This document shows, piece after piece, positions 2,600-56,442 of a DNA stretch of 64,000 bases. Below the pieces are notes generated by a model. The model did not search any database, had not been told where the DNA came from, and worked only from the letters and a program-made list of their open reading frames with translations. This DNA comes from Candidatus Anderseniibacteriota bacterium (lineage in GTDB: Bacteria; Patescibacteriota; Andersenbacteria; UBA10190): positions 195,370 to 259,369 of the forward strand of contig JAIOOW010000003.1 of assembly GCA_021414205.1 (NCBI GenBank), written 5' to 3'. The translations under genes and the position numbers were made by a program. How positions within the stretch are numbered: the stretch's first letter is position 1; the number at the start of each line of letters is the position of its first letter.

Positions 2600-2648
2600 C
2601 AATAAAAAGGCTATATAGCAAAAAATATCCAATCAATCATACAAATAC

Positions 2649-2677
2649 TTGACTTTTTATAAAAAAAAGAGTATTAT
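2649..2677 (+). promoter_or_regulatory. putative sigma70 promoter (TTGACT-17nt-TATTAT)
   Basis: -35 TTGACT 2649-2654, 17-nt A/T spacer, -10 TATTAT 2672-2677; followed by ~150-nt hairpin-rich leader. Confidence 0.4.
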
Positions 2678-2828
2678 ATCATTGTTTCGTGAGGACTGAG
2701 AGGTCTTTTACAACATGGTGCGAAGCAGGTGAGCCCGCTATTGGCGGTGTCAGTGATCTTTTTCGCTGGTCGCCAGTACCGGGCTTACCAAAGTGGTAAG
2801 TCTTTGAAGTAAAAAACGGAGGTGTGGC

Positions 2829-3026
2829 ATGTTTGTTGTTATTCAGTTTGTTCATCCATCGTTGAGAAGCGCCGTCATAGTACCGGTTCAAAAAGGGCGA
2901 CTCCCTGAGTCGGTATGGGCTGCTCCGCGCATCAACTTCGACATTCTGGGTTTGTTTTCTCAATGGTATGACGCAGCATCCGCTGCTGTCACAGCTCGTC
3001 TTGTGTATCGCACAGTAGCCGAGTAA
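2829..3026 (+). CDS. hypothetical small protein (65 aa)
   Basis: ORF with strong SD (ACGGAGGTG, 4-5 nt before ATG); the overlapping 153-aa minus-strand ORF looks random. Confidence 0.3.
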   Translation: MFVVIQFVHPSLRSAVIVPVQKGRLPESVWAAPRINFDILGLFSQWYDAASAAVTARLVYRTVAE

Positions 3027-3150
3027 ATTCTGTGTTTTGCTGAACATTAAAATCGAGCGGTCTTTATCATTTTGATACTGACCGCTTTTCTCTTGGATTC
3101 GCAACAACGCGTTGTGGATCAAAGTGGAAAAATAATACAAAGGGTTTGCG

Positions 3151-3528
3151 ATGTCGTTTCATTGTTTGCTTGATAACGTTCAGGCGGGCGAGATGCTGCG
3201 AGACGTTTCTCAGTGGGAAACGTCAGTCGTGTGTCTATCTTTTGCACTCGAGTTTTGGGCTATGGGCACAAAACACGGAGTAGGCACTACAGAGAAAGCA
3301 CAAGAAAAGCTTCAGAAAGTGTTTGTGCTGATGGAGCTTTCCAGCCGACTGGATCTGATGGCGAGAAACCATTTTGGCTTTTTGCCAACTAAGAATCGAG
3401 TTTGGCGGGGCAAGGAGGCGCGCCACGGTAATTTCGTCGGAGCTCTGGCGACGGTTCTTTGTCAGAAGTTTCAGCTTGGTACATTTGAAGAGTTGTTTCG
3501 AGCTCATCTGAAAATTGTCGGGCTTTGA
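3151..3528 (+). CDS. hypothetical protein (125 aa)
   Basis: ORF with AAAGGG-6nt-ATG; no recognisable domain. Confidence 0.3.
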   Translation: MSFHCLLDNVQAGEMLRDVSQWETSVVCLSFALEFWAMGTKHGVGTTEKAQEKLQKVFVLMELSSRLDLMARNHFGFLPTKNRVWRGKEARHGNFVGALATVLCQKFQLGTFEELFRAHLKIVGL

Positions 3529-3627
3529 GGAGGTTCTTTGATCATTGTAAGCAGTCGGCGCCCTTGGGTGTCGACTGTTTTTCTTTACTTTTACCCTATA
3601 GTTTTGTATTGTAGGAAAACATATATT

Positions 3628-13700: not shown

Positions 13701-14918
13701 GCTATTACTGACGCAGATTCTGGACTTCAGCATTATCAGTATATGTTGCGAGATGCAGCTTCGACTATAATCGATTCTGGATTCACAACTCTTACGACAT
13801 ATTCGCACACGTTTTCAGTGAATGGAGTGTATACGTTCTTCCTACGAGCGATTGATAATGCGGGGAATAAAGGAGCGGGCGCAACATCCTCAGTGACGTT
13901 AGACGTAAGCGCTCCTGATAATCCGTCTGCAGATAATGCGGGAGGAAACTACGCATCCCCAGTAACTGTTGCGCTAACGAGTAACGATCCAACAGTGAAT
14001 GGAGTAAGTTCAAATCCGACAACTATCCGTTACACGACCGACGGCACAAATCCTGATGCAAGCAGTACGCTGTATGCTGGATCAATTACAATCAATCAAG
14101 ATACTACGCTAAAAGCAATTGCGTATGATGCGGTCGGAAATGCTTCAGGAGTTATGACAGAAGTGTATTATGTTGCTCCAGTAATCACTGATGTAACTTC
14201 TTCTGCGAATAGCAACCCAGCATCAGAGCGCGTTATTCATTGGGCAACAAATATCAACTCAGATTCACGCGTCGTATTTGGAACAACCTCAGTTTCAGAC
14301 ACTGACGCAACAACAGCAGGGTCTCCAAGCTATGGATATGGCCAGTCATCTGATCACCTGGACATTAGTCCAAATGGCGTAGTGACGCACACGGTAACAA
14401 TTACAGGATTGAATTCATTCACGACGTACTTTTACCGCGTAATTTCTGCAGAAACGTTAGCAACACTGAGTGCTGAATACTCATTCGGAACAGAGGCTAC
14501 CGATGGCAACCCAGGACCAAATGGCGATTCTGGAAGCTCTTCCGGATCATCTGATAATTCTGGGTCTTCAACAGGTAAAGTATTAGGCGCTACTACAAAG
14601 GCATCGCCTACACCAACTCCTGCTGTAATCTCTGGTACATCGGTAGATCTTGAATCTACGAATCCAGCAGCTAGTAAAGGTTCAAATGGGTCAGGATCTG
14701 GTACAGGTTCTCCTGAAGCGTCAGCATCCCCAAGCCCTTCTGTGAGCCCGTCTCCTGAAGCGTCACCGGAAATAAGTCCTACGCCAAGCCCGACTCCGCA
14801 AAGCGAGAATGGTAAGGCATTCCAGTGGTCGTGGTGGTGGCTAGTATTGCTTGCAATCATCGCAGGAGGAATCTGGTACTGGAGAAGAAACAACACGAAC
14901 AACGACGTTACTCCGTAA
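10773..14918 (+). CDS. giant cell-surface protein (1381 aa): signal peptide, Pro/Asp/Thr repeats, LamG/ConA-like, HYR-like, Fn3-like repeats, chitobiase-C-like module, Ser/Gly/Pro stalk, C-terminal TM anchor
   Basis: N-terminal hydrophobic signal; PSDxPAP repeats; LSLWAKLD...KLYVDGV (LamG); VTCDKNSG...CDATDTAGN (HYR); TTIRYTTDGTNPD...TLKAIAYD; C-terminal WWWLVLLAIIAGGIWYWRRN. Confidence 0.8.
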   Translation: MYSSYLRFKKFISALTIALFAVVNPLLSFVPAAHASEGDVTDSIVSTPVDAPVDQPSDIATPSDAPAPSDTPAPSDTPTPTDTPVASDTSAPVDPTPVPETTPAPTTSSDPVNTDDGVWQMLANGKALTRDAVNMSTTYVAPQNSKVTVHFTQLPETPGNLTIQEIKLSADQQKQLGALSDTAYDISSNMENGTFKYDLTLPNPTGNKDATVKYSETVSDLPSAQNVTQKTSVDTDENTITITGLNHFTIFTLVGHYALDGSGTDTGTAANDGTVNGTTDNGSGATLQFSNTDSKHFNGTSDYIRVERTGHPELDPSEVTLSLWAKLDALNENYSKTIAGRAGGSNGLTYGLKFLDGSSNNAIQAQVRTQSSGSITLTYEISPLDLAWHQYAVSYGISDGGNVKLYVDGVVKASQNNIGAVLDYRTAFSDDDLFIGRDGLGNYYKGSVDDVRMYNGQLADSQVAVLAAGYEDITAPDVPTLDSPASPSIIQPSAATLKWNTVTDPSSPVTYKYESSYSSTVGANNAFTSPIYGPVVKTTNEIDATHSPDHLYYWQVQACDARGNCSDWSGPWQVTIDGTKPVIASHSDITTEATSALGASATFTLPTATDAVDGTDTVTCDKNSGDTFPIGTTQVNCDATDTAGNHALQTHFNIVVQDTISPTTPTTPTVATSPTNNNKPTWSWSPAPTDAVGVDHYVLYWGTAAGSETYSQAVSGTSYTLTAPQALADGTWYAKVKAFDAAGNFSTSGNGSVVIDTIAPTAPNPISPADGFAAKPVAISQTWDHISDAVQYQYQSCYSDPGTGVVCSGANLKSQSYYTGTTKNIGSGQPDSHFWWHVRAKDAAGNWSPYGQAFELYIDGTAPVTTDSGTDTDWHKDNVTVTLACADSLSGCATTYWSIDSTPTIATHDGTGSSVVVSTTGIHTIQYFSVDHADNAEAVKTAANQVQIDKVTPAMPSFIGSIVSPTNNPVVSWTWGAITDADSGLQHYQYMLRDAASTIIDSGFTTLTTYSHTFSVNGVYTFFLRAIDNAGNKGAGATSSVTLDVSAPDNPSADNAGGNYASPVTVALTSNDPTVNGVSSNPTTIRYTTDGTNPDASSTLYAGSITINQDTTLKAIAYDAVGNASGVMTEVYYVAPVITDVTSSANSNPASERVIHWATNINSDSRVVFGTTSVSDTDATTAGSPSYGYGQSSDHLDISPNGVVTHTVTITGLNSFTTYFYRVISAETLATLSAEYSFGTEATDGNPGPNGDSGSSSGSSDNSGSSTGKVLGATTKASPTPTPAVISGTSVDLESTNPAASKGSNGSGSGTGSPEASASPSPSVSPSPEASPEISPTPSPTPQSENGKAFQWSWWWLVLLAIIAGGIWYWRRNNTNNDVTP

Positions 14919-14996: not shown

Positions 14997-15025
14997 TTGA
15001 CAAAATAGTAATATAAGAGTATAAT
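14997..15025 (+). promoter_or_regulatory. consensus sigma70 promoter (TTGACA-17nt-TATAAT)
   Basis: -35 TTGACA 14997-15002, 17-nt spacer, -10 TATAAT 15020-15025; perfect consensus hexamers. Confidence 0.5.
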
Positions 15026-15125
15026 GGCACTATTCAGTGATTCTAGTTCTTTTGAAGAATCAATAGAGCAGTCGACATTCGTTTGTTGACTACGCGTGAT
15101 AAGGATCTTTTGGAGGGATGATTGT

Positions 15126-15296
15126 TATGGAGCCTCTTTTGGTCGCGTTTTTAGTTGTGGTGATCTTGGCGATTGGTCTCGTCTTCCTGATGGGGAACGA
15201 GGTTCCGATCCGGCAAAACTGGGTGGGATGTACTAATAACACCTCAGAGACCCACGACTTTAGTCGGCCCCGCTTGCGCATCAGGGACCTGCTTTA
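15126..15296 (+). CDS. hypothetical 56-aa single-TM peptide (not in ORF track, <60 aa)
   Basis: GGAGGG SD upstream; reads MEPLLVAFLVVVILAIGLVFLMGNEVPIRQNWVGC... with one TM helix; sits between consensus promoter and terminator. Confidence 0.3.
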
Positions 15297-15317
15297 GGCG
15301 AGTCCGCAGACTTCATT

Positions 15318-46443: not shown

Positions 46444-47217
46444 ATGTATGAACGATTCACTGATCGCGCGCTCAAGGTGATGCAGTTGGCCAATGAAGAA
46501 GCTCAGCGGTTCAATCACGAGTATATTGGTACTGAGCACATTCTCCTCGGTATTATACGGGAGGGAGGCGGTATCGCTTTTGTGATTCTCGGCGGGTTTG
46601 GGGTTGATTTGCAAAAGGTTCGGCTCGAAGTTGAAAAACTTGTTCAGTCGGCATCAGAAGATATGGCTACGATTGGAAGGCTTCCCCAAACTCCGCGTGC
46701 AAAGAGGGTTATTGAGTTTGCGATGGAAGAGGCTAGGGGATTTGATCACAAGCACATTGGCACTGAGCATTTACTGCTTGGGCTCATTCGCGAAGCAGAG
46801 GGTGTGGGAGGGCAAGCGTTGCTTAACCTTGGTCTGGAGCTCGACGTGGTTCGGCAATGTGTTCTTCAAGCAATTGCTTATGGTGAGCATGGTACTGTAT
46901 CGTCTCCGATACCATTTAGCGCTCGCATTATGTGTTGCAAGATATTGTTCGAGTTTGACGAATTGATAAGTGAGCTCGACACAGAGGTGTTTCGTTCTGC
47001 TAGGCGTGAATGGATCACTGACAACGATGTTCAGTTACGTTGGGCGAAACACGAGGATTTTCAGCCGGCCGTTAAAGTTCATCGCGACACTCTTTTGAGG
47101 CTGAGGAATGATACGGCAAAGGCTATTGGTTTTGGTCCGCGAGAGGCGCACAGTTTCTTTCCTCGGGACTATGCGGTAACGCCAATGGGGTATCTATTGC
47201 CTCTGAAACCCATGTGA
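46444..47217 (+). CDS. standalone Clp N-terminal (Clp_N/R) repeat domain protein with unknown C-terminal domain
   Basis: MYERFTDRALKV...YIGTEHILLGIIRE and second repeat HIGTEHLLLGLIRE; no AAA+ module; AGGAGGG SD. Confidence 0.75.
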   Translation: MYERFTDRALKVMQLANEEAQRFNHEYIGTEHILLGIIREGGGIAFVILGGFGVDLQKVRLEVEKLVQSASEDMATIGRLPQTPRAKRVIEFAMEEARGFDHKHIGTEHLLLGLIREAEGVGGQALLNLGLELDVVRQCVLQAIAYGEHGTVSSPIPFSARIMCCKILFEFDELISELDTEVFRSARREWITDNDVQLRWAKHEDFQPAVKVHRDTLLRLRNDTAKAIGFGPREAHSFFPRDYAVTPMGYLLPLKPM

Positions 47218-47288
47218 AATTTGAAGGTTGCTTGGTGATCCAGGCAACCTTTTTAATATCGCTATAAAATAGCTGATATACTTACAAG

Positions 47289-49346
47289 GTGATTCTTCAT
47301 CTTAGGAATATTTGGCTTTGGATAGCAGGGGTTATTATTGCGGTCGCGGGCATTATATTATTTTTATTCTATGCGCCGTATTTAGGGGCTGTTTCGTATT
47401 TGCACCAGGGATTTTATATAGCATCACCGGATGTTCTGGTGGCAGGAGTCGTTAACACCATCACCTGGTCGGTAAGTGATACGAATGCGACAAAGTACCC
47501 TACGGAAAAAGTAGAGGTTTGCCGCGGAGCTCTGCCCGATCAGGGCTGTGTTTTAATTGCGGATGTTGTAAAAAATAATCGCAGTGCCCAAGCAATGGTT
47601 CCAATCACGATTCCTCGAGGGGTGGCATACTTGCGCATGACGGCGCGCGACGCTGCTGGGCAGCTCGTTTTAGGCGCTTCTTCTGCAAAAATGATTACTG
47701 TTGTGTCGTCGACTACAGTAGGGGCTGGCGATACGGTGCAGGCACTTTGGAAAAGAGATACAAGATATTCCGCGGTAAAAATAGAATTTTGTATTGCATC
47801 TAGTCCGACTGCAAAATGTATTACTCTTGCGTCGAAGATTGCAAATTCAGGAAGTGCAAAAATTACCGTACCGAAGGGTATCGTAAAGTCTGATGGATAC
47901 ATTGTGGTGCATAATCGTACGCTTGGTGGACTTCTCGTTTCTGGAAGTTCCCAATATGGATCAGCAAAAATTCTGCAAACGGCAAAACCAATCGCTGCTA
48001 CTGCAAGTTCTAGCGACGGAGGTTCTGGTGGTGGAGGAGGGTCTAACGATGGCGGCGGATCGAATGATCAAGGGCCTATAGATACTCCCGTAGTGACTGC
48101 GGAACCAACTCCAACGCCTGGGCCAACAGATAGCCCCGTACCTACGGACACGCCGAACCCTACAGAAACACCAACTCCTACCCCGAGCCAGACAGTCGAG
48201 CCGACCGTAACGCCAGAGATGAGCCCAACGCCAACAGCGGAACCGACATCTACGCCTACGCCGACCGTATCTCCAACAACAACGCCCACTAGTACTCCGA
48301 CAATGAGCCCGAGCCCTACGCCGAGCCCAACGCCATTTATAAGTTCGATTGCATGTAACGGCATAAACGTAAAAGATTACGGAGTGCTTGGTGACGGAAA
48401 GGCAGATGATACGGAAGCGATTAAAAAATCATTAAATGCTCCGGGCACCACTCTTTGTTTTCCTGCTGGGATTTACAGGATATCTGCTGAACTGAATTTG
48501 AGCGCACATCCAACTGTTATTAGTGACGCTGGCGCAATTATTGAGCAAACGTGTTCTACGTGCATTAGCTTCACGTTTTCGGGTCCATATGAAGTATTTA
48601 TACGCGGTATGAAATTCTTAGGCGGAAGGAATCAGATTGCATTTACGAATGACGGAAGTAAAAATTCTTCGTTACATATTATAGACTCTGAATTTCAGGC
48701 TTCGACTGGATATGCGGTTGCTGGCACTTCGGGGAATGTATTACCCGGAACTTTAAAGATTGAGCGTTCAAAGTTTGTGAATGGTAGAAAGGTTCTGCGT
48801 AATTCGTTTGCGTCTGCAACGGTGCAGGACACCTGGGTATCAGTAGGAAACAAGAATTTTGATACAGATTCTGCAGCATTTTGGAATATATCCGGAGCAT
48901 CGCTTGTATTTGATAATATGATGGGCACGCCGGCAATGGGCGAATCAACGGATCGCTTAAGTGCTGTTCGATGGGTGGATAATTATGGAATATTTCAGGC
49001 TCTACAAAGTAGGTTTGGAGGGGAAGCAGGGGGTATGCCGATTGTGTATCAGTATGCTGGGGGAAGCACAGGGGTTACGATTCGGGATTCTCAAATATCT
49101 TCTGGTCCGGGATTACAGAAAGATTCCGCGGTAATTGTGACAAAAAGCGCAGTGCCGGATACCGTAGCTATCTCGGGAGCGAATTTCTTAATTGAAGCTC
49201 CATATATTCTTGCTCAGGCTTTTGACATTGCAAAGTATGTGGTAGGACATTCTGGGCTGCATATTAACCTTGATGCAAACATGGCGTATCCGAGTTCCCC
49301 AGATATTCCGTCTGTGCTTGAGAAGTTTACTATAAGAAAGAAATAG
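47289..49346 (+). CDS. secreted right-handed beta-helix (pectate-lyase-fold, Pectate_lyase_3-like) protein with PT-rich linker
   Basis: N-terminal TM/signal; PTPTP linker; NVKDYGVLGDGKADDTEAI beta-helix signature. Confidence 0.65.
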   Translation: MILHLRNIWLWIAGVIIAVAGIILFLFYAPYLGAVSYLHQGFYIASPDVLVAGVVNTITWSVSDTNATKYPTEKVEVCRGALPDQGCVLIADVVKNNRSAQAMVPITIPRGVAYLRMTARDAAGQLVLGASSAKMITVVSSTTVGAGDTVQALWKRDTRYSAVKIEFCIASSPTAKCITLASKIANSGSAKITVPKGIVKSDGYIVVHNRTLGGLLVSGSSQYGSAKILQTAKPIAATASSSDGGSGGGGGSNDGGGSNDQGPIDTPVVTAEPTPTPGPTDSPVPTDTPNPTETPTPTPSQTVEPTVTPEMSPTPTAEPTSTPTPTVSPTTTPTSTPTMSPSPTPSPTPFISSIACNGINVKDYGVLGDGKADDTEAIKKSLNAPGTTLCFPAGIYRISAELNLSAHPTVISDAGAIIEQTCSTCISFTFSGPYEVFIRGMKFLGGRNQIAFTNDGSKNSSLHIIDSEFQASTGYAVAGTSGNVLPGTLKIERSKFVNGRKVLRNSFASATVQDTWVSVGNKNFDTDSAAFWNISGASLVFDNMMGTPAMGESTDRLSAVRWVDNYGIFQALQSRFGGEAGGMPIVYQYAGGSTGVTIRDSQISSGPGLQKDSAVIVTKSAVPDTVAISGANFLIEAPYILAQAFDIAKYVVGHSGLHINLDANMAYPSSPDIPSVLEKFTIRKK

Positions 49347-49351
49347 AAAAT

Positions 49352-50536
49352 ATGACTACTAAATACATTGCAATATACGCAGGGCTCGCAGTAATAATCG
49401 TAGCAAGTGTTAGTTTGTTATTTAGCCCATTTCGGCACTATCTCGGACTCACAACGTTTACTGCAAAGGATAAAAGTGGCCCATGTCAAAATGCTATTAA
49501 CGTGAAAGATTACGGTGCAAAGGGTGACGGCTCCGCGGATGATACAAAGGCTATTGCTGATGCATCTACGGCAAGCAAGACGTCCGTGCGAGCATCTGGA
49601 GCTATTAATGCATATATTGGTTCTTCTGACCCAATATGCTTTCCAGCAGGAGATTATAAAATTTCAAACGAGCTTGCATTGAAGGCGTATGCAAATATTT
49701 ATGGCGAAGGAGACGTAAGGATTACTCAGTCATGCGCTTCCTGTAATATTTTTGTATTCCGTGGCGGGTATACGATTACGCTTCGTAATATACATTTCAT
49801 TGGTGGAAAAAATCAGATATTTTTTGAAAATAACAATACCGATACTACTACGGTAGCAATTGAGAATAGCCAGTTTGAGTCAGCGAATGATTATGCCATC
49901 TATACAAATGGAACATCGGATGGGCATTTGTCCGCAGAAATTTCAATCTATGCTTCAAAATTTATTAATTCCAGAAAAGTAATGAGGAACGTAGCGGATC
50001 ACGTTATCATGCGCGACAGTTCGATTGTAGTAAGTAAAAATAATTTTGATGCAAATTCCGGCGCAATTTGGAACCGAGAATCAAGCTCGATATTTTTCAA
50101 TAATGTTACGGCAACCGCAAACTTGAACGGAGTGTCTCAGGTAAGATGGGTAGATAATAACGGAAACTTTTTCGTGGACAAGAGCATCTTTGCAGGAGAG
50201 AATGGCGGGATTCCAATTGTGTATCAATTTGGCGCGCCGATAACGGCATATCCGTTTATGGGAAAATCCGTTGTTATTCGAAACTCTAAAATTTCCGCAG
50301 GTTCAGATACGGTTATCGTGTTAAAAGAAGCAGTGCCGCAATTAGTACTCATGCAGGGGAATACCTATTCCGCAACGCATCATGTATTTTCAGATGCGGC
50401 TAGCCTGGCAGGGTATATAGATGCTGTAAATAAAGTGATGCCGTTATCGTTAAAGACTCAAGCATTTAATATTCAAGTTGAAGATGTGTCGCAAGCAAAT
50501 GTGCCTGCCGCTCTGCAAAGTTTTGTAAGGAAATAA
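49352..50536 (+). CDS. secreted beta-helix (pectate-lyase-fold) protein, paralog of upstream gene
   Basis: NVKDYGAKGDGSADDTKAI; ICFPAGDYKIS; collinear similarity with C-terminal half of 47289..49346. Confidence 0.65.
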   Translation: MTTKYIAIYAGLAVIIVASVSLLFSPFRHYLGLTTFTAKDKSGPCQNAINVKDYGAKGDGSADDTKAIADASTASKTSVRASGAINAYIGSSDPICFPAGDYKISNELALKAYANIYGEGDVRITQSCASCNIFVFRGGYTITLRNIHFIGGKNQIFFENNNTDTTTVAIENSQFESANDYAIYTNGTSDGHLSAEISIYASKFINSRKVMRNVADHVIMRDSSIVVSKNNFDANSGAIWNRESSSIFFNNVTATANLNGVSQVRWVDNNGNFFVDKSIFAGENGGIPIVYQFGAPITAYPFMGKSVVIRNSKISAGSDTVIVLKEAVPQLVLMQGNTYSATHHVFSDAASLAGYIDAVNKVMPLSLKTQAFNIQVEDVSQANVPAALQSFVRK

Positions 50537-50540
50537 AAAA

Positions 50541-50755
50541 CCTAGTGATTGTTCTATAATTAACGCCCCGCAACGGAAACCAATTACAGAGGCCAATCAC
50601 TAGGCCGTATGCTTTCCCGACACTCTTGCGACTTTCGGACGAGCCCGTAGGTGATGGAGAGCCGATCACCAGCCAGTAGGGGGAATTCAATCTGACTGTG
50701 TGGGCCTATGCATTTTCTGGGAAATGCACCTGTATACGTCTGCTTCGCAAGAGTG
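50541..50755. ncRNA. structured RNA-like element of unknown class (nested long-range helices and hairpins)
   Basis: Perfect 11-bp inverted repeats CCTAGTGATTG/CAATCACTAGG (50541-51/50594-604) and CACTCTTGCGA/TCGCAAGAGTG (50621-31/50745-55) plus internal hairpins. Confidence 0.3.
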
Positions 50756-50898
50756 CCGGGGTAAGTTTCAAAGAACAAATCTGATATCTCTTATTTTATG
50801 CTTCATATGGGAAAGTACAATATTTGATAAAAATAGAGAAATATCGTATATAGGATGAGGAATTAGCACAGCACATTTCACGTTTGAAAGGCAATATA

Positions 50899-51357
50899 AT
50901 GTATGAACGCTTCACTGATCGCGCTAGAAAAGTGATGAAGCTTGCTGAAGAAGAGGCTCGTCGGATGCGGCATGATGCTGTTTGCCCGGAGCACGTTCTG
51001 ATTGGGATTATTAAAGAGCGGCACGGACATGCTGGCAATGTGTTGCGCGATCTGGGGGTTACGTTGGAAGATCTCCAGGCTGATGTTGAAAGAGTGCTGC
51101 CTGCTTCTGGTGACCACGAGATAACAGAGATAATACCCTTGACGCCAATTGTAGAGCAACTCATTGCATATGCATGGGAAGAAGCAGAGCTTCTTGCTCA
51201 TACGTATATCGGGACTGAGCACTTGCTATTGGGGCTGATTCGTGGACATCATGGTGCATCGTATGTATTGCGTGAGCGTGACTTGCCGGAAGAAAAGATT
51301 CGCGCACAAGTGAGAATTGCTCTCGGGTGCGACGAGGCCCCTGCTTCTTCCGAATGA
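50899..51357 (+). CDS. standalone Clp N-terminal repeat domain protein (152 aa)
   Basis: MYERFTDRARKVMKLAEEEA...YIGTEHLLLGLIRG; two Clp_N repeats only. Confidence 0.75.
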   Translation: MYERFTDRARKVMKLAEEEARRMRHDAVCPEHVLIGIIKERHGHAGNVLRDLGVTLEDLQADVERVLPASGDHEITEIIPLTPIVEQLIAYAWEEAELLAHTYIGTEHLLLGLIRGHHGASYVLRERDLPEEKIRAQVRIALGCDEAPASSE

Positions 51358-51663: not shown

Positions 51664-53052
51664 ATGCACAAGCTAATTATCTACCTGGATCAAAATTTCA
51701 TTAGCGATATTGCTAAGCAGTCTTTAGAAGACAAAAAAGATAAAGTAAAACCTCTTTTAAAGGACTTCTTTGAAGTCATAAAAAGTGGCGTAGATAACGA
51801 ACAATTTGTATCTCCTGACAGCTGGATTCACAAAATAGAAACAGCAGCAGAGAATGATCCAGAATTGCAGGAAGCGATACATAGCTATCAAGGCTATTTA
51901 GGGCAAATATCTTTTACGTTACCCCAGGAAATTCAAAAGACTCAATTCGAGAAAGCAGTCCTGAGCTATTTTAATATTCAGCCTGTCGACAAGGAAGATT
52001 GGAAAGAAGCTTTTAGGGAAAACCCTGATAAGCGGATGGAAAACTATAAGATCGATATACTCATGGATATTGGCAATTCCCTTGCCGTAAGCGCAGCAAC
52101 TATACAGAATTTACAAAAAATTCGTGAAAGTGGAGTAAGTGAGAAGGTCCAATACAAAGCGGAAATTGAAGCTAGTAGAAAACACTATAAAGAGTTAATA
52201 CGCAGGGATTTCTTGCCCATACTCGAACAGTACAGTATTAGTATCGAACAAGCAGAGGAATTTATTGATTCTAATGAATTCACTCAGATACCTAATATTG
52301 ATATCTTCTGTCACCTTTGGAGTAGATGCCTTGCCGATAAAGGTCGCAAGACGGGGGTAGAAGGTGATTACAATGATATCCAGTTACTCTCGACATATCT
52401 TCCCTATTGCGATCTCCTTGCCACAGACAACTACATGAAGACGATGGTTAAGGAATTTAAAATAGATCAGCAATATAGCTGCCAAGTTATATCAATGAAA
52501 GAAGGTGAATTAAATGAAGCTATTGATTTTCTAGAGCAGGAACAAATAGAAAGACCCCCAGCTAACCAGAGTTTATTTTCTGTTTTATGCACCAAGGCTA
52601 ATGAAATACAGGCTTACTCTGTAGAATTCTTACGAAAGCTCAGTTTAGCATCAAACAAATTTCACAGAACGGGAAAGTACTGGAATAAAGAAGTGTATAC
52701 TGAGGTTTTTCTCGAGTTCTCAGGCAAAGAGAATATTGATCGAGCAGACCCAAAAACTGTTTTAGAAGCAGGGCCAGCTGTTATTAGTCCTAGCCAGTGG
52801 ACAGAGCTGCAAATTTTTAATTCTGGTTTTAAGAGTATTGAAAACACTACGGACAAAACTCCTTCAGAACTCATAGAAACTATACCCACACACCTCCTTG
52901 GACCAGCTACTGCGATTTTACCCGAGGGTTCGGTCTTTGACGAAGACTTGCGTGAGCACGACAGTGATCTTTTTTATGATATTGAGGACGCTGTAGAAAA
53001 TAAACGAAGTAAAACAAAAAAGTATTCTATCGATATTATTCACAATGATTAG
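51664..53052 (+). CDS. hypothetical protein, AT-rich island gene A (462 aa, no recognisable domain)
   Basis: Long ORF with clearly lower GC than flanks; no SD; overlaps gene B by 8 nt. Confidence 0.7.
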   Translation: MHKLIIYLDQNFISDIAKQSLEDKKDKVKPLLKDFFEVIKSGVDNEQFVSPDSWIHKIETAAENDPELQEAIHSYQGYLGQISFTLPQEIQKTQFEKAVLSYFNIQPVDKEDWKEAFRENPDKRMENYKIDILMDIGNSLAVSAATIQNLQKIRESGVSEKVQYKAEIEASRKHYKELIRRDFLPILEQYSISIEQAEEFIDSNEFTQIPNIDIFCHLWSRCLADKGRKTGVEGDYNDIQLLSTYLPYCDLLATDNYMKTMVKEFKIDQQYSCQVISMKEGELNEAIDFLEQEQIERPPANQSLFSVLCTKANEIQAYSVEFLRKLSLASNKFHRTGKYWNKEVYTEVFLEFSGKENIDRADPKTVLEAGPAVISPSQWTELQIFNSGFKSIENTTDKTPSELIETIPTHLLGPATAILPEGSVFDEDLREHDSDLFYDIEDAVENKRSKTKKYSIDIIHND

Positions 53053-54850
53053 AACTGAGTTACAAAATTATCTTGAAGGATTAGAAACAAGCAAGGACAT
53101 GCTTGACGAGGTTGAAATTGGCCAAGAAATTAGTAAAATCCTTAAACCAAAAAATGAAAAACTTACAAACGAAGAAGAAATTGCAGAGTATATAGCATTT
53201 CACTTCCTACCAAAATATCCCGATACTCAAACTAGCTGGGGTACTTATTATGGGCCGTTATACATATTGCCAAACGAGAAGGGTCAATACTCTGAGTTTC
53301 CTAGTATACAGGGTGTGAATACAAAGACTCTTGAGTATTGGGAAAATAGAGCAAATCAATCTCAGAATCCATTATTGGTAGGCCGGTACGCAGACCTTGT
53401 TTTTGATTTGAGCGCCAAGATAAACAGTAGCGAAAATATTAAGTATCAAATGGCACGGAAAGTTATTGATTCCACAATTACCATTTGCGAACAAGGGTTA
53501 GCCGATAGCTTAGATTCCAAACAAAAGCTTGAGCGTGCTCTTTCTTTATCGAAACAGATCAATGATAAAGATAGAATTAATAAGATTAAAGAAACAATTA
53601 TTAATACTGAAAGAAGACTTGCAGAAGATACCAAACCAGGAACTTGGGGCTATTCGTTTGAATGGTTAGTACTTCACCGTGACCCCAAAGTAGTCCTGAG
53701 CGAGGAGGAGGAAAAAATGATAATCAGCAGCCTAGCGGAGAGACTAGAAAGGCTAACCAACACAGAAAGCTCTGATCCCTGGAAAGTAGAATGTGCGGTA
53801 AACCTTCTTGCAGACTTTTATGCCTTAAAAAAAGATGAAGCCTCTTTAAATGACGCTTTGAGCAAATTAGAACAATCTTTTAGATCTAATAGTCGTGCAA
53901 ACTCAGATGGTCTGTTGCTAGTTAATTACCTGGAAAGACTAAGAGAAGTGTATTCTCGATATTTACAATTTCAGTTCGCGAAAGATGCAATGGACAGAAT
54001 AACTGCTGAATTGAGTAATGTAGGCAGTAAGGCAAACTTTGACATGAAGGAAATCTCGGCCGAAGTGAAAGTAAAACAAGAGGACATAGACAGATTTCTG
54101 TTCTCAATTTTTGGAGATGATAAAGATAACAAAAAAGAAATTGAAGAAGTTGTCAGCAGATTAGTAGTCAGTTTTGTTCCAAAAAAAGATGAATTAGAGA
54201 AGCAATTTAACGACCCGAATAAACAATTTATCTTTCGACAACTAGGATCAAATATGATCGTTTCCGATAAAGATGGTTTCCCTATAGCGAAGTTTGGCCC
54301 CGTGAGTGAAGATTATGATAGCCATTTAGGACAGTATTTTTCTGAAAACCTACATTTTCAATCAGTCTTTTTGAATTTGTCCTTTGTTGAGCTTAGGAAA
54401 AAGTATACTCCTGAATCTTTATATGAGTTCATGGGATCCTCAGCACTCTTCCTGCCAGAGGACAAGGATTACATATTAAAAATATTAAACGCGTTCTGGA
54501 ATAAAGATTTTCTATATAGCGGTGCTTTAATGGTACCCCTAATCGAAGACACAGTTAGAAACGTCTTTAGGATAAATAAATTGTCATTTATAAAACCTAA
54601 CAGTAATGCTGGCTATGATGTTCTTCCCTTATATGACCTATTAAACCATGGTGTCATTAAAGCAATATTTGGAAGTCTCGGTGAAAACATTGAGTACTAC
54701 TTTAAATCCCTGCTGACTTCAAGAATAGGTTGGAACTTGAGAAATAATTTTGCGCATGGGATAAACAAGAACTATTTCGCTAGTCCGAACGTATCGAATA
54801 GGCTCTTGCACGTATTGCTTTGTCTTTCTCTCATTAGAAAAAATAAATGA
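53045..54850 (+). CDS. hypothetical protein, island gene B (601 aa) with C-terminal HEPN-like Rx4H motif
   Basis: C-terminal ...RIGWNLRNNFAHGINKNYF (R-x4-H, Abi_2/Swt1-type HEPN signature) after ~500-aa helical region; AT-rich. Confidence 0.7.
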   Translation: MIRTELQNYLEGLETSKDMLDEVEIGQEISKILKPKNEKLTNEEEIAEYIAFHFLPKYPDTQTSWGTYYGPLYILPNEKGQYSEFPSIQGVNTKTLEYWENRANQSQNPLLVGRYADLVFDLSAKINSSENIKYQMARKVIDSTITICEQGLADSLDSKQKLERALSLSKQINDKDRINKIKETIINTERRLAEDTKPGTWGYSFEWLVLHRDPKVVLSEEEEKMIISSLAERLERLTNTESSDPWKVECAVNLLADFYALKKDEASLNDALSKLEQSFRSNSRANSDGLLLVNYLERLREVYSRYLQFQFAKDAMDRITAELSNVGSKANFDMKEISAEVKVKQEDIDRFLFSIFGDDKDNKKEIEEVVSRLVVSFVPKKDELEKQFNDPNKQFIFRQLGSNMIVSDKDGFPIAKFGPVSEDYDSHLGQYFSENLHFQSVFLNLSFVELRKKYTPESLYEFMGSSALFLPEDKDYILKILNAFWNKDFLYSGALMVPLIEDTVRNVFRINKLSFIKPNSNAGYDVLPLYDLLNHGVIKAIFGSLGENIEYYFKSLLTSRIGWNLRNNFAHGINKNYFASPNVSNRLLHVLLCLSLIRKNK

Positions 54851-55168: not shown

Positions 55169-55240
55169 GTCCGGGGAATAGGAGTTGAACCTATCTAGAG
55201 GGATTTACAGTCCCTTGCATAGCCGATCTGCCATCCCCGG
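55169..55240 (-). tRNA. tRNA-Tyr (GUA), class I / archaeal-eukaryal type (5-nt variable loop, C1-G72)
   Basis: Manual fold: acceptor CCGGGGA/TCCCCGG, anticodon arm AGGGA-CTGTAAA-TCCCC, variable TCTAG, T arm ATAGG-TTCAACT-CCTAT, discriminator A; D stem only 3 bp. Confidence 0.7.
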
Positions 55241-55315
55241 TGGAGCCAGCTGTCGGAATCGAACCGACGATCTTCTGTTTACAAAACAGTTGCTCTACCA
55301 CTGAGCTAAGCTGGC
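55241..55315 (-). tRNA. tRNA-Thr (UGU)
   Basis: Acceptor GCCAGCT/AGCTGGC, anticodon loop TTTGTAA, T arm GTCGG-TTCGATT-CCGAC, encoded CCA. Confidence 0.85.
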
Positions 55316-55362
55316 ATATATACAAAACTGGCATCTGCCAGCGTTTCGTATACTATGAATAT

Positions 55363-56442
55363 ATGACAGAAAAACAAGAAATAATCAACCGTTTGCAGCA
55401 CAATTTGGCTGAAATCATCACACCGGAGGAATTTGAGGGGCTTATTACTAGAATTGAATCTGGCGAAAAAGTGACCCATTATATTGGGTTTGAAATCTCC
55501 GGATATGTCCATATCGGGCAGGGGATTATGTCTGCGCTGGTGATAAAAGACCTCCAAGCGCTTGGGGTGCAGTGCACTATTTGGTTGGCAGATTGGCATA
55601 CGGCCATTAATCATAAGTTAGATGGCTCAAAAGAAACGGCCGCGAAGATTGGTACAGGATATTTTACGGAAGCGATAAAAGCGTGCCTGATGGCCGTTGG
55701 CGCTGATATGGAAAAAGTAGAATTTCGATTGGCTAGTGAGTGGTATGCAAAAGATGCTATGGGATACTGGAATACCGTCATGAGCGTAGCGCAGAACACG
55801 ACACTGGCGCGCATTCAGCGAAGCATCAGTATTATGGGGAAAGAGGCAGGCGAAGATGTGGAAATGGCAACGCTGTTTTATCCTGTAATGCAGGTGGCAG
55901 ATATTTTTTATCAAGACATTGCAATTGCGCATTCCAGTATGGATCAGCGCAAGGCGCACGTAGTGATGCGAGATACGGCAAGTAAGGTAATGCCGAATAA
56001 GCCGAAGCCTGTAGCGCTGCATCATGCATTAATAGATAGTCTGACGGGCGATAATAAAATGAGCAAATCAAAACCGGATTCTGCTGTATTTGTTCATGAT
56101 GATGCTGAAAGTATTTCTGTAAAAATTAAAAAAGCATTCTGCGAAGAAAGAAATATTGAAAAGAATCCGATTTTAAACTGGACGAAGAATATTTTATTCT
56201 GGTCCCGCACGGCGCCATTTACTATTGAGCGAGAAGAAAAATTTGGTGGAAATGTTTCGCTTGCTTCGTATGAAGAACTAGAAAAAGCATTTGCAGCAGG
56301 TGGTGTGCATCCAATGGATTTGAAAGCTGCCGTTGCTAAAGAAATTATCGCGCTTCTGAAGCCGGCTCGCGATCATTTTGCGAAACCGGAAATTGCCGAG
56401 ATGAAAAAAGAATTAGACGATGTCATCACTAAGCGAGGATAA
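55363..56442 (+). CDS. tyrS: tyrosine--tRNA ligase, archaeal/eukaryotic type
   Basis: HIGH-like YIGFEISGYVHIGQ, YPVMQVADI, KMSKS, EKFGGNVSLASYEELE, HPMDLKAAVA; collinear with M. jannaschii TyrRS; ORF trimmed to ATG 55363 (track ORF runs over the tRNAs). Confidence 0.85.
   Translation: MTEKQEIINRLQHNLAEIITPEEFEGLITRIESGEKVTHYIGFEISGYVHIGQGIMSALVIKDLQALGVQCTIWLADWHTAINHKLDGSKETAAKIGTGYFTEAIKACLMAVGADMEKVEFRLASEWYAKDAMGYWNTVMSVAQNTTLARIQRSISIMGKEAGEDVEMATLFYPVMQVADIFYQDIAIAHSSMDQRKAHVVMRDTASKVMPNKPKPVALHHALIDSLTGDNKMSKSKPDSAVFVHDDAESISVKIKKAFCEERNIEKNPILNWTKNILFWSRTAPFTIEREEKFGGNVSLASYEELEKAFAAGGVHPMDLKAAVAKEIIALLKPARDHFAKPEIAEMKKELDDVITKRG

Follow-up and report, generated by a model that had tools for sequence, protein, structure and literature searches.

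The window analysed here is a stretch of 64 kb from an Andersenbacteria-like genome of the CPR/Patescibacteria, with a GC content of 45%. All the genes called between 44091 and 58101 are on the + strand, and the gene order is as follows: a gene encoding a 749/756-aa membrane protein, a first Clp_N gene (Clp-N#1, 257 aa), two paralogous genes encoding pectate-lyase-like beta-helix proteins of 685 and 394 aa, the element that is the subject of this work, a second Clp_N gene (Clp-N#2, 152 aa, ATG at 50899; hereafter Clp-N), a low-GC island with two genes encoding proteins of 462 and 601 aa, tRNA-Tyr and tRNA-Thr, both on the minus strand, and a gene encoding a TyrRS. The 394-aa protein shows 100% identity to an NCBI entry under the name Candidatus Andersenbacteria bacterium, and one of the related contigs carries the label Saccharibacteria. 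The element shows a single copy within the 64 kb, and its GC content is 51-56%, versus 30-31% in the spacer on the Clp-N side. Shine-Dalgarno motifs are scarce in the whole window: AGGA or GGAG is found upstream of five of the 44 predicted starts and GGAGG upstream of none of the 44, which suggests that initiation is largely SD-independent in this CPR genome.

In the region 55169-56442, the 359-aa TyrRS, directly beside the tRNA-Tyr and tRNA-Thr genes, matches PRK08560 (E=9e-110), which we take to be the archaeal-type TyrRS. The mechanically called ORF at 55240-56442 is too long, reaching over the tRNAs; the TyrRS gene itself starts at about 55363. The Andersenbacteria are among the bacterial groups in an analysis of archaeal-identity TyrRS (PMC5370408).

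Repeats, folding and predicted structure

An earlier note on this DNA, made from the sequence alone, had described at 50541-50755 two long-range inverted repeats enclosing smaller hairpins, and held that so many helices would not be expected by chance. All of them are present. The arms 50541-50551 and 50594-50604 are complementary at 11 of 11 positions, and the perfect 11-bp repeat 50621-50631/50745-50755 is the inner part of a 16-nt inverted repeat at 94% (50616-50631/50745-50760). The arms of the GGTGAT/ATCACC hairpin are at 50650-50655 and 50665-50670, and those of the GCATTT../..AAATGC hairpin at 50710-50717 and 50721-50727. The folding strength agrees with the view that these helices exceed chance: the z-score of the minimum free energy (MFE) against dinucleotide shuffles is -3.9 for the + strand and -5.1 to -5.3 for the minus strand, and the minus-strand segment starting at 50521 is the first of 2126 by GC-corrected folding (240-nt segments on both strands of the 64 kb). 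The hairpin-rich element is real, conserved and strongly structured. The span originally given located the repeats rightly but falls short of the functional unit, which is larger and extends from about 50531 as far as 50786, or 50820 if the promoter is included; its left edge is at a U-tract, as set by comparison with a related genome (L007, below), and its right edge just before the -35 box of Clp-N.

The next ranks of the same scan fall in other parts of the window. A strongly folding stretch that starts near 3001 on the + strand has rank 2 and lies in a region of about 1 kb between tRNA-Met and tRNA-Asp (2600-3627), which shows no convincing long ORF and where a permissive Rfam scan gave nothing but the tRNA. 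Ranks 3 and 4 belong to the + strand segments that begin at 14881 and 14941. At 14997-15300, in the 760-nt spacer ahead of secE-nusG, a perfect sigma-70 promoter, TTGACA-17-TATAAT (about 14997-15025), is followed by a structured stretch and by an ORF of 59 aa (15118-15297), which is hydrophobic.

On the minus strand, to which the element is assigned below, the predicted transcript is composed of a 5' leader, a core domain, a linker and a 3' hairpin, with a predicted pairing density of about 80 bp in 255 nt. The leader (AGAUUUGUUCYUUGAAACUUA, 50761-50786, its first position being set by the predicted start site) is mostly unpaired. The core (50616-50760), on which the MFE fold and the alignment consensus agree, is closed by the 16-bp helix P1 (50760-50745 with 50631-50616). 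An internal loop, AGCA on one side and CGAAAG on the other, separates P1 from the 5-bp helix P2 (50742-50737 with 50641-50636), and the joining segment J is UAUACAG. Hairpin A (50729-50722 with 50715-50708) has 8 bp and the loop CCCAGA, and P3 (50706-50702 with 50646-50642) has 5 bp. Hairpin B (50697-50692 with 50676-50671) has 6-7 bp and a loop of 15-17 nt with a run of five to seven C, and hairpin C (50670-50662 with 50657-50650) has 8 bp, one bulge and the loop CUCU. In this predicted fold the core shows two stacked three-way junctions, one formed by P2, hairpin A and P3 and the other by P3, hairpin B and hairpin C. The linker AAAGCAUACGG (50605-50615) joins the core to the terminator hairpin (50541-50604), which has a perfect base stem of 11 bp and an upper stem of about 12-15 bp.

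Conservation and distribution among relatives

The loci of the closest homologues were fetched by means of the flanking proteins, and the window was compared with these related loci. The element is present in three genomes: the one containing the window, L002 (GCA_964450915.1) and L007 (a 541-kb contig from ENA). It occupies the same place relative to Clp-N in all of them, and the Clp-N proteins of L002 and L007 are 83% and 87% identical, respectively, to that of the window. Pairwise identity among the three is 91-94.5% in the core (P1 to P1), 90-93% in the terminator hairpin, 83-87% in the 5' leader and 72-85% in the promoter spacer. The coding sequence of Clp-N shows 84.5-87.6% identity, and 32 to 42 of its 153 third codon positions differ (about 21-27% divergent); the element evolves three to five times slower than the synonymous sites of the adjacent gene. 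More conserved than the Clp-N coding sequence, its third positions and the promoter spacer, the core bears the sequence signature of purifying selection.

Two blocks of the core, of about 35 nt and about 48 nt, are invariant: they span the inner part of P1, J, P2 and hairpin A, and hairpin C, J and the 3' strands of P3, P2 and P1 with the J between the latter two. Variation falls mainly in loop B, in which the C-run is the only conserved portion of an otherwise hypervariable sequence, in the segment between P3 and hairpin B, in the outer portion of P1 and at the upper end of the terminator. Several changes keep the pairing. One pair of P1 is compensatory, the window having G-U, L002 G-C and L007 A-U; hairpin B shows a change of U-G to C-G, and in the terminator (minus strand) GG-UU is replaced by AA-UU and several G-U pairs by A-U or G-C. 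L002 has lost the U of one P1 pair, so that a bulged A remains. Covariation among these three near-identical sequences amounts to the one compensatory pair, with 48 of the 52 core pairs invariant and the observed value reached by 326 of 500 shuffles; with only three such sequences, it is thermodynamics and the conservation pattern that support the helices, and not covariation.

Upstream of the element, the L007 genome differs from the window: its neighbouring gene is that of the 749-aa membrane protein and not, as in the window, that of the 394-aa beta-helix protein. Homology between both sequences starts exactly at GAAATAAAAAACC, which comprises the final codon and the stop of the gene upstream and which, on the other strand, is the U-tract. 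The block 46444-50536, containing Clp-N#1 (257 aa) and the genes of the 685-aa and 394-aa paralogues, is missing in L007, and there the element adjoins the 749-aa gene. The presence or absence of this 4-kb block reflects an insertion or a deletion, with the junction inside the final codon of the gene upstream.

The element was not found upstream of the Clp-N orthologues with 68-69% identity (L008/L009 and L010/L011), nor downstream of the beta-helix orthologues with 57-61% identity (L004-L006), and the syntenic sites of L004, L005, L006, L008 and L009 do not contain it. Searches with blastn, nhmmer and a covariance model of the core (R1) in 135 kb from 11 related loci recovered only the three syntenic copies. 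The pattern TATACAG-N(65-95)-TAC-RY(9)-CGAAAG has 23 matches in the GTDB species genomes, of which only the one in the L002 contig is real; the remaining 22, judged by eye, are irrelevant, and comprise a Clostridia block that resembles a single conserved coding gene, and apparent chance matches. A hairpin-C pattern gave three matches in the JGI metagenomes, all high-GC and unrelated, and three pattern scans of IMG/VR gave none. These patterns tolerate only transitions, and more divergent members of the family may escape them. As far as we can see from the collections searched, the sequence matches confine the element to a shallow clade whose Clp-N proteins are at least 83% identical. Its absence beside the orthologues with 68-69% identity, and the lack of further members in the pattern scans of GTDB and JGI, indicate that the element is very young, fast-evolving or dispensable. 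The earlier note had regarded lack of covariation or conservation in relatives, or absence from them, as evidence against a structured RNA. On these points the picture is divided: the Clp-N orthologues with 68-69% identity have no element before them and the covariation does not reach significance (n=3), yet the element is conserved in three genomes.

Around 15 Clostridia genomes (among L012-L031) match the degenerate pattern with an identical spacing of 101 nt, and these matches by eye are presumably a conserved coding gene read antisense, possibly that of an anaerobic ribonucleotide reductase. Patterns degenerate in R and Y can pick up conserved coding sequence.

Downstream of Clp-N, between this gene and tRNA-Tyr/tRNA-Thr, the two-gene island (51664-54850) has a GC content of 31-39%. 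The 462-aa protein belongs to no family, and the 601-aa DUF4209/DUF7380 protein matches the PADLOC candidate defence family PDC-S39 (E=2e-26). In the relatives the same slot contains a Peptidase_C14 gene and a gene encoding a 584-aa protein (L007), or other small genes (L008 and L010), and it is empty in L002, which lacks the PDC-S39-like island and keeps the RNA element. The slot looks like a tRNA-adjacent variable region or defence-island hot spot.

Predicted transcription signals and the Clp-N promoter

On the minus strand, a U-tract, UUUUUUAUUU (U6AU3, 50531-50540), is located directly 3' of the hairpin; the three genomes show no change in this tract, which overlaps the TAA stop codon (50534-50536) of the convergent gene encoding the 394-aa protein. 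The 64-nt hairpin 50604-50541 closes with two C-G pairs. Only the minus strand has UUUUUUAUUU directly behind this hairpin; the + strand has A6 before it and CCGUAUGC after it. The features that define an intrinsic terminator, a stable hairpin with a U-tract at its 3' end, are found on the minus strand, where hairpin and U-tract together form a predicted intrinsic terminator.

At the opposite end, a -35-like hexamer TTGTAC (50815-50820, minus strand) is identical in the window, L002 and L007, and a -10-like hexamer TAAAAT (50793-50798, minus strand) is also invariant in the three genomes. Both are separated by 16 nt and, in the direction of the minus strand, precede P1 by about 30 nt, constituting the predicted promoter of an sRNA. 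The spacer between them is variable (ATATGAA, GTACGGA and CTACGGA in the three genomes), and the 7-10 nt past the -10 box also vary; the conservation of the transcript begins a few bases downstream of TAAAAT, from AGAUUUGUUC. The conserved hexamers, the variable spacer and the restart of conservation at AGAUUUGUUC place the predicted transcription start site at about 50786 (+/-3). TTGTAC matches the -35 consensus in only three of six positions and an automatic promoter scan called no promoter; for both reasons, the sRNA promoter is given as a prediction.

Energy and pair composition were dropped as evidence for the strand. In the window, the MFE is -94.9 kcal/mol on the minus strand versus -84.6 kcal/mol on the plus strand, and the minus-strand pairs include ten G-U versus one A-C; this difference fails in the relatives, where the MFE of both strands is approximately equal in L002 and slightly better on the + strand in L007, and the overall asymmetry of G-U to A-C is only about 6 to 3-4. 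The assignment to the minus strand is based on the polarity of the terminator, on the signature of a promoter and on where the promoter of Clp-N lies. The earlier note had implicitly read the element on the + strand, which is opposite to the strand carrying the U-tract and the conserved -35 and -10 boxes.

Clp-N shows a promoter of its own outside the element, TTGATA (50824-50829)-17-TATATA (50847-50852) on the + strand, which is present in six Clp-N loci. TATATA is followed by a conserved 5'UTR of about 45 nt that leads to the ATG. In all six loci, TTGATA is the exact point where similarity sets in on the side of Clp-N, and the 17-nt spacer is variable. The Clp-N loci of L008, L010 and L011 keep the promoter and the 5'UTR and lack the element. 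The block is read as a sigma-70 promoter with a short leader, a consensus that applies in this genome given the perfect TTGACA-17-TATAAT before secE-nusG. No expression platform was found on the + strand: no helix has a U-tract after it, and the ribosome-binding site is about 130 nt past the element. Since the expression signals of Clp-N are downstream of the element and are kept where the element is absent, the element is not a leader of Clp-N, and it is independent of this gene. The cis-regulatory role first proposed for it finds no support, given the promoter at 50824-50852, which lies between the element and the ATG.

Nature of the element

Comparison of the whole window with Rfam 15 at gathering thresholds, which covers riboswitches, ribozymes, 6S, SRP, RNase P, tmRNA, group I and II introns, OLE, ROOL, GOLLD, raiA and HEARO RNAs, and others, gave no family within the element. 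With E<=10, slices of 701 nt and 266 nt gave only chance-level matches, of which the one inside the element is a CRISPR-DR66 fragment (E=4.9). The Rfam/Infernal scan that the earlier note had proposed has thus been run and names no family for the element at either threshold. ARAGORN found no tRNA or tmRNA at 50531-50790 and seven tRNAs elsewhere in the window; together, both programs bear out the initial impression that the element is not a tRNA and does not match tmRNA, SRP RNA, RNase P RNA or 6S RNA. Inspection by eye, backed by the negative Rfam scans, found no fit to a hammerhead, a k-turn, P4 of RNase P, domain IV of SRP, the tag of tmRNA or 6S. A tRNA with a group I intron, considered in view of PMC13011429, was rejected by the same kind of inspection and scans.

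A coding function was also rejected. The longest ORF through the element encodes 64 aa on the minus strand from a TTG start, is frameshifted to a stop in L002 and has no Pfam match; each of the four substitutions found within its first 30 codons changes the amino acid. A stretch of 48 nt is invariant at all three codon positions, and all the reading frames through the element carry stops.

We consider that the element most probably, at about 60%, is an orphan and free-standing sRNA gene on the minus strand, of about 255 nt, with its own promoter and terminator. This reading is based on the polarity of the terminator, the promoter signature, the self-contained unit, the purifying selection, structure beyond chance, the non-coding character and the absence of a known family. 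It coincides with one of the two possibilities originally raised, an independent sRNA, in that the element is conserved above its neighbours and has promoter-like and terminator-like signals of its own. A weak sigma-70-type promoter, TTGTAC-16-TAAAAT, back-to-back with that of Clp-N, would drive a transcript from about 50786 to about 50531. The transcript would contain, in this order, an unpaired leader of about 25 nt, the 145-nt core closed by the 16-bp P1, the 11-nt linker and the 64-nt hairpin, and this hairpin together with U6AU3 would end transcription. In this scheme, the helices, the conservation, the polarity of the signals and the independence from Clp-N are shown; expression, transcript ends and function are inferred.

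If the element is an sRNA, its mode of action can be proposed only tentatively: it may be a stable RNA acting in trans by means of its folded core, for protein binding, as a scaffold or for sequestration, rather than by way of a long antisense seed. This mode is favoured since the invariant nucleotides belong to the junctions and to hairpins A and C, and the leader and loop B drift, save for the C-run. The genomic context offers few hints as to function: Clp-N is independent of the element, the PDC-S39-like island is missing in L002, and the genomes differ in the gene upstream.

A trans-acting RNA that base-pairs with its targets, of the RsaE/RoxS or RNAIII kind, shares all the evidence for an sRNA gene but is unlikely. 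In this mode, C-rich motifs left unpaired in the fold would bind the ribosome-binding regions of target mRNAs where these are rich in G, and the anti-SD motifs proposed are the hairpin A loop CCCAGA, the run of five to seven C in loop B and CUCUCC in hairpin C. The conservation of the C-run as the sole constant part of loop B, and the C-rich character of loops A and C, agree with this mode; however, two of these three motifs are partly paired in the MFE fold, SD motifs are scarce (AGGA or GGAG at five of the 44 starts), and when the unpaired segments were compared with 42 initiation regions, about 5% of the genome, a fraction of 0.41-0.89 of the shuffles was at least as good.

A further proposal, which we regard as speculative and quite unlikely, is that the unit was recently gained as a self-contained transcription unit of about 290 bp, and that it represents a new, highly structured RNA class of a shallow clade of ultra-small, Andersenbacteria-like CPR bacteria, beyond a further antisense regulator; its invariant core with a double three-way junction would be a ligand-binding, protein-binding or catalytic module.

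The element could instead be a DNA-level feature or relic, such as a mobile-element remnant, a recombination site or a decayed gene fragment, with no RNA function. The relatives differ in what lies between the 749/756-aa gene and Clp-N, the distribution is patchy and shallow, and a 7-nt AT-rich repeat, ATAAAAA, the only flanking repeat, is found at both edges (50532-50538 and 50827-50833). Nevertheless, the element evolves slowly and the changes in its stems keep the pairing, its frames carry stops with no Pfam similarity, blastn found no match in the phage and plasmid collections, and there is no transposase, integrase or reverse transcriptase gene nearby, all of which makes a relic improbable. 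A MITE or IS remnant in particular was rejected: beyond the syntenic site no copy exists in the 64 kb or in the 135 kb of related loci, and the ends are not inverted repeats.

Very improbable is a + strand role as 3'UTR, as transcription stop or insulator of the upstream gene, or as a barrier between convergent and divergent units. The element begins 5 nt past the stop codon of the 394-aa gene, and such genes need termination; however, the + strand helices have no U-tract after them, the same element is found behind different upstream genes (in the window and L002 versus L007), and a multi-junction core of 145 nt conserved above coding sequence far exceeds the needs of a terminator. Least probable of all is a + strand cis-regulatory leader or riboswitch of Clp-N, since, although the element is upstream of Clp-N in its three carrier genomes and folds well on the + strand too (z of -3.9 to -8.2), the promoter block and 5'UTR are downstream of it and conserved in the element-free L008, L010 and L011, no terminator or anti-terminator logic is present on the + strand, no riboswitch or leader family matches, and no + strand promoter is found upstream of an element that abuts the stop codon of the preceding gene.

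As a free-standing minus-strand sRNA gene, the element can be compared with several known systems. OxyS/oxyR and GcvB/gcvA of enterics are lineage-specific sRNA genes with a sigma-70 promoter and an intrinsic terminator, often divergent from their neighbour. The element is like them in its predicted organisation, a free-standing intergenic unit with back-to-back promoters, a 3' terminator domain and a narrow range; it differs in being far more structured, with two three-way junctions and no obvious single-stranded seed, and in its neighbour, Clp-N, which is not a known transcription factor. Its host also differs, being a CPR bacterium, and we know of no sRNA biology described in this host group. 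With RsaE/RoxS and other C-rich sRNAs of Firmicutes the element shares C-rich motifs in or near hairpin loops and the 3' terminator hairpin; unlike RsaE/RoxS, it is more than twice as long, shows no sequence or Rfam match, belongs to a host that barely uses SD sequences and gives no target signal in the 42 regions.

Like 6S RNA, the element measures about 180 nt if the terminator is left out, is closed by a long helix between its 5' and 3' parts and has a very stable fold of the housekeeping type; 6S RNA was nonetheless rejected, since the interior of the predicted fold is multi-branched, with two three-way junctions, and not a rod with a central bubble, and no 6S model matches at E<=10. The omega-RNAs of IscB/TnpB, the bridge RNA of IS110, the msr-msd RNA of retrons and tracrRNA are also multi-helix scaffolds of 150-300 nt with an unpaired 5' segment, located in a variable region of the genome, and were rejected as well: the neighbours of the element encode Clp_N, pectate-lyase-like, DUF4209 and TyrRS proteins, and no gene encoding IscB, TnpB, an IS110 recombinase, a reverse transcriptase or Cas, and no repeat array, is found nearby. 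The element fits no described RNA family and is thus a new candidate family of a familiar kind.

The annotation of the locus is corrected, with Clp-N having a short ordinary promoter and 5'UTR, and no large leader. The very narrow distribution of the element and the absent covariation limit generalisation. CPR genomes have about 1 Mb and little room for non-functional DNA, and, to our knowledge, almost nothing is known about the regulatory and structural non-coding RNAs of the Candidate Phyla Radiation bacteria. A 255-nt RNA unit under stricter conservation than the protein gene beside it would offer a concrete entry point to the RNA biology of this group.
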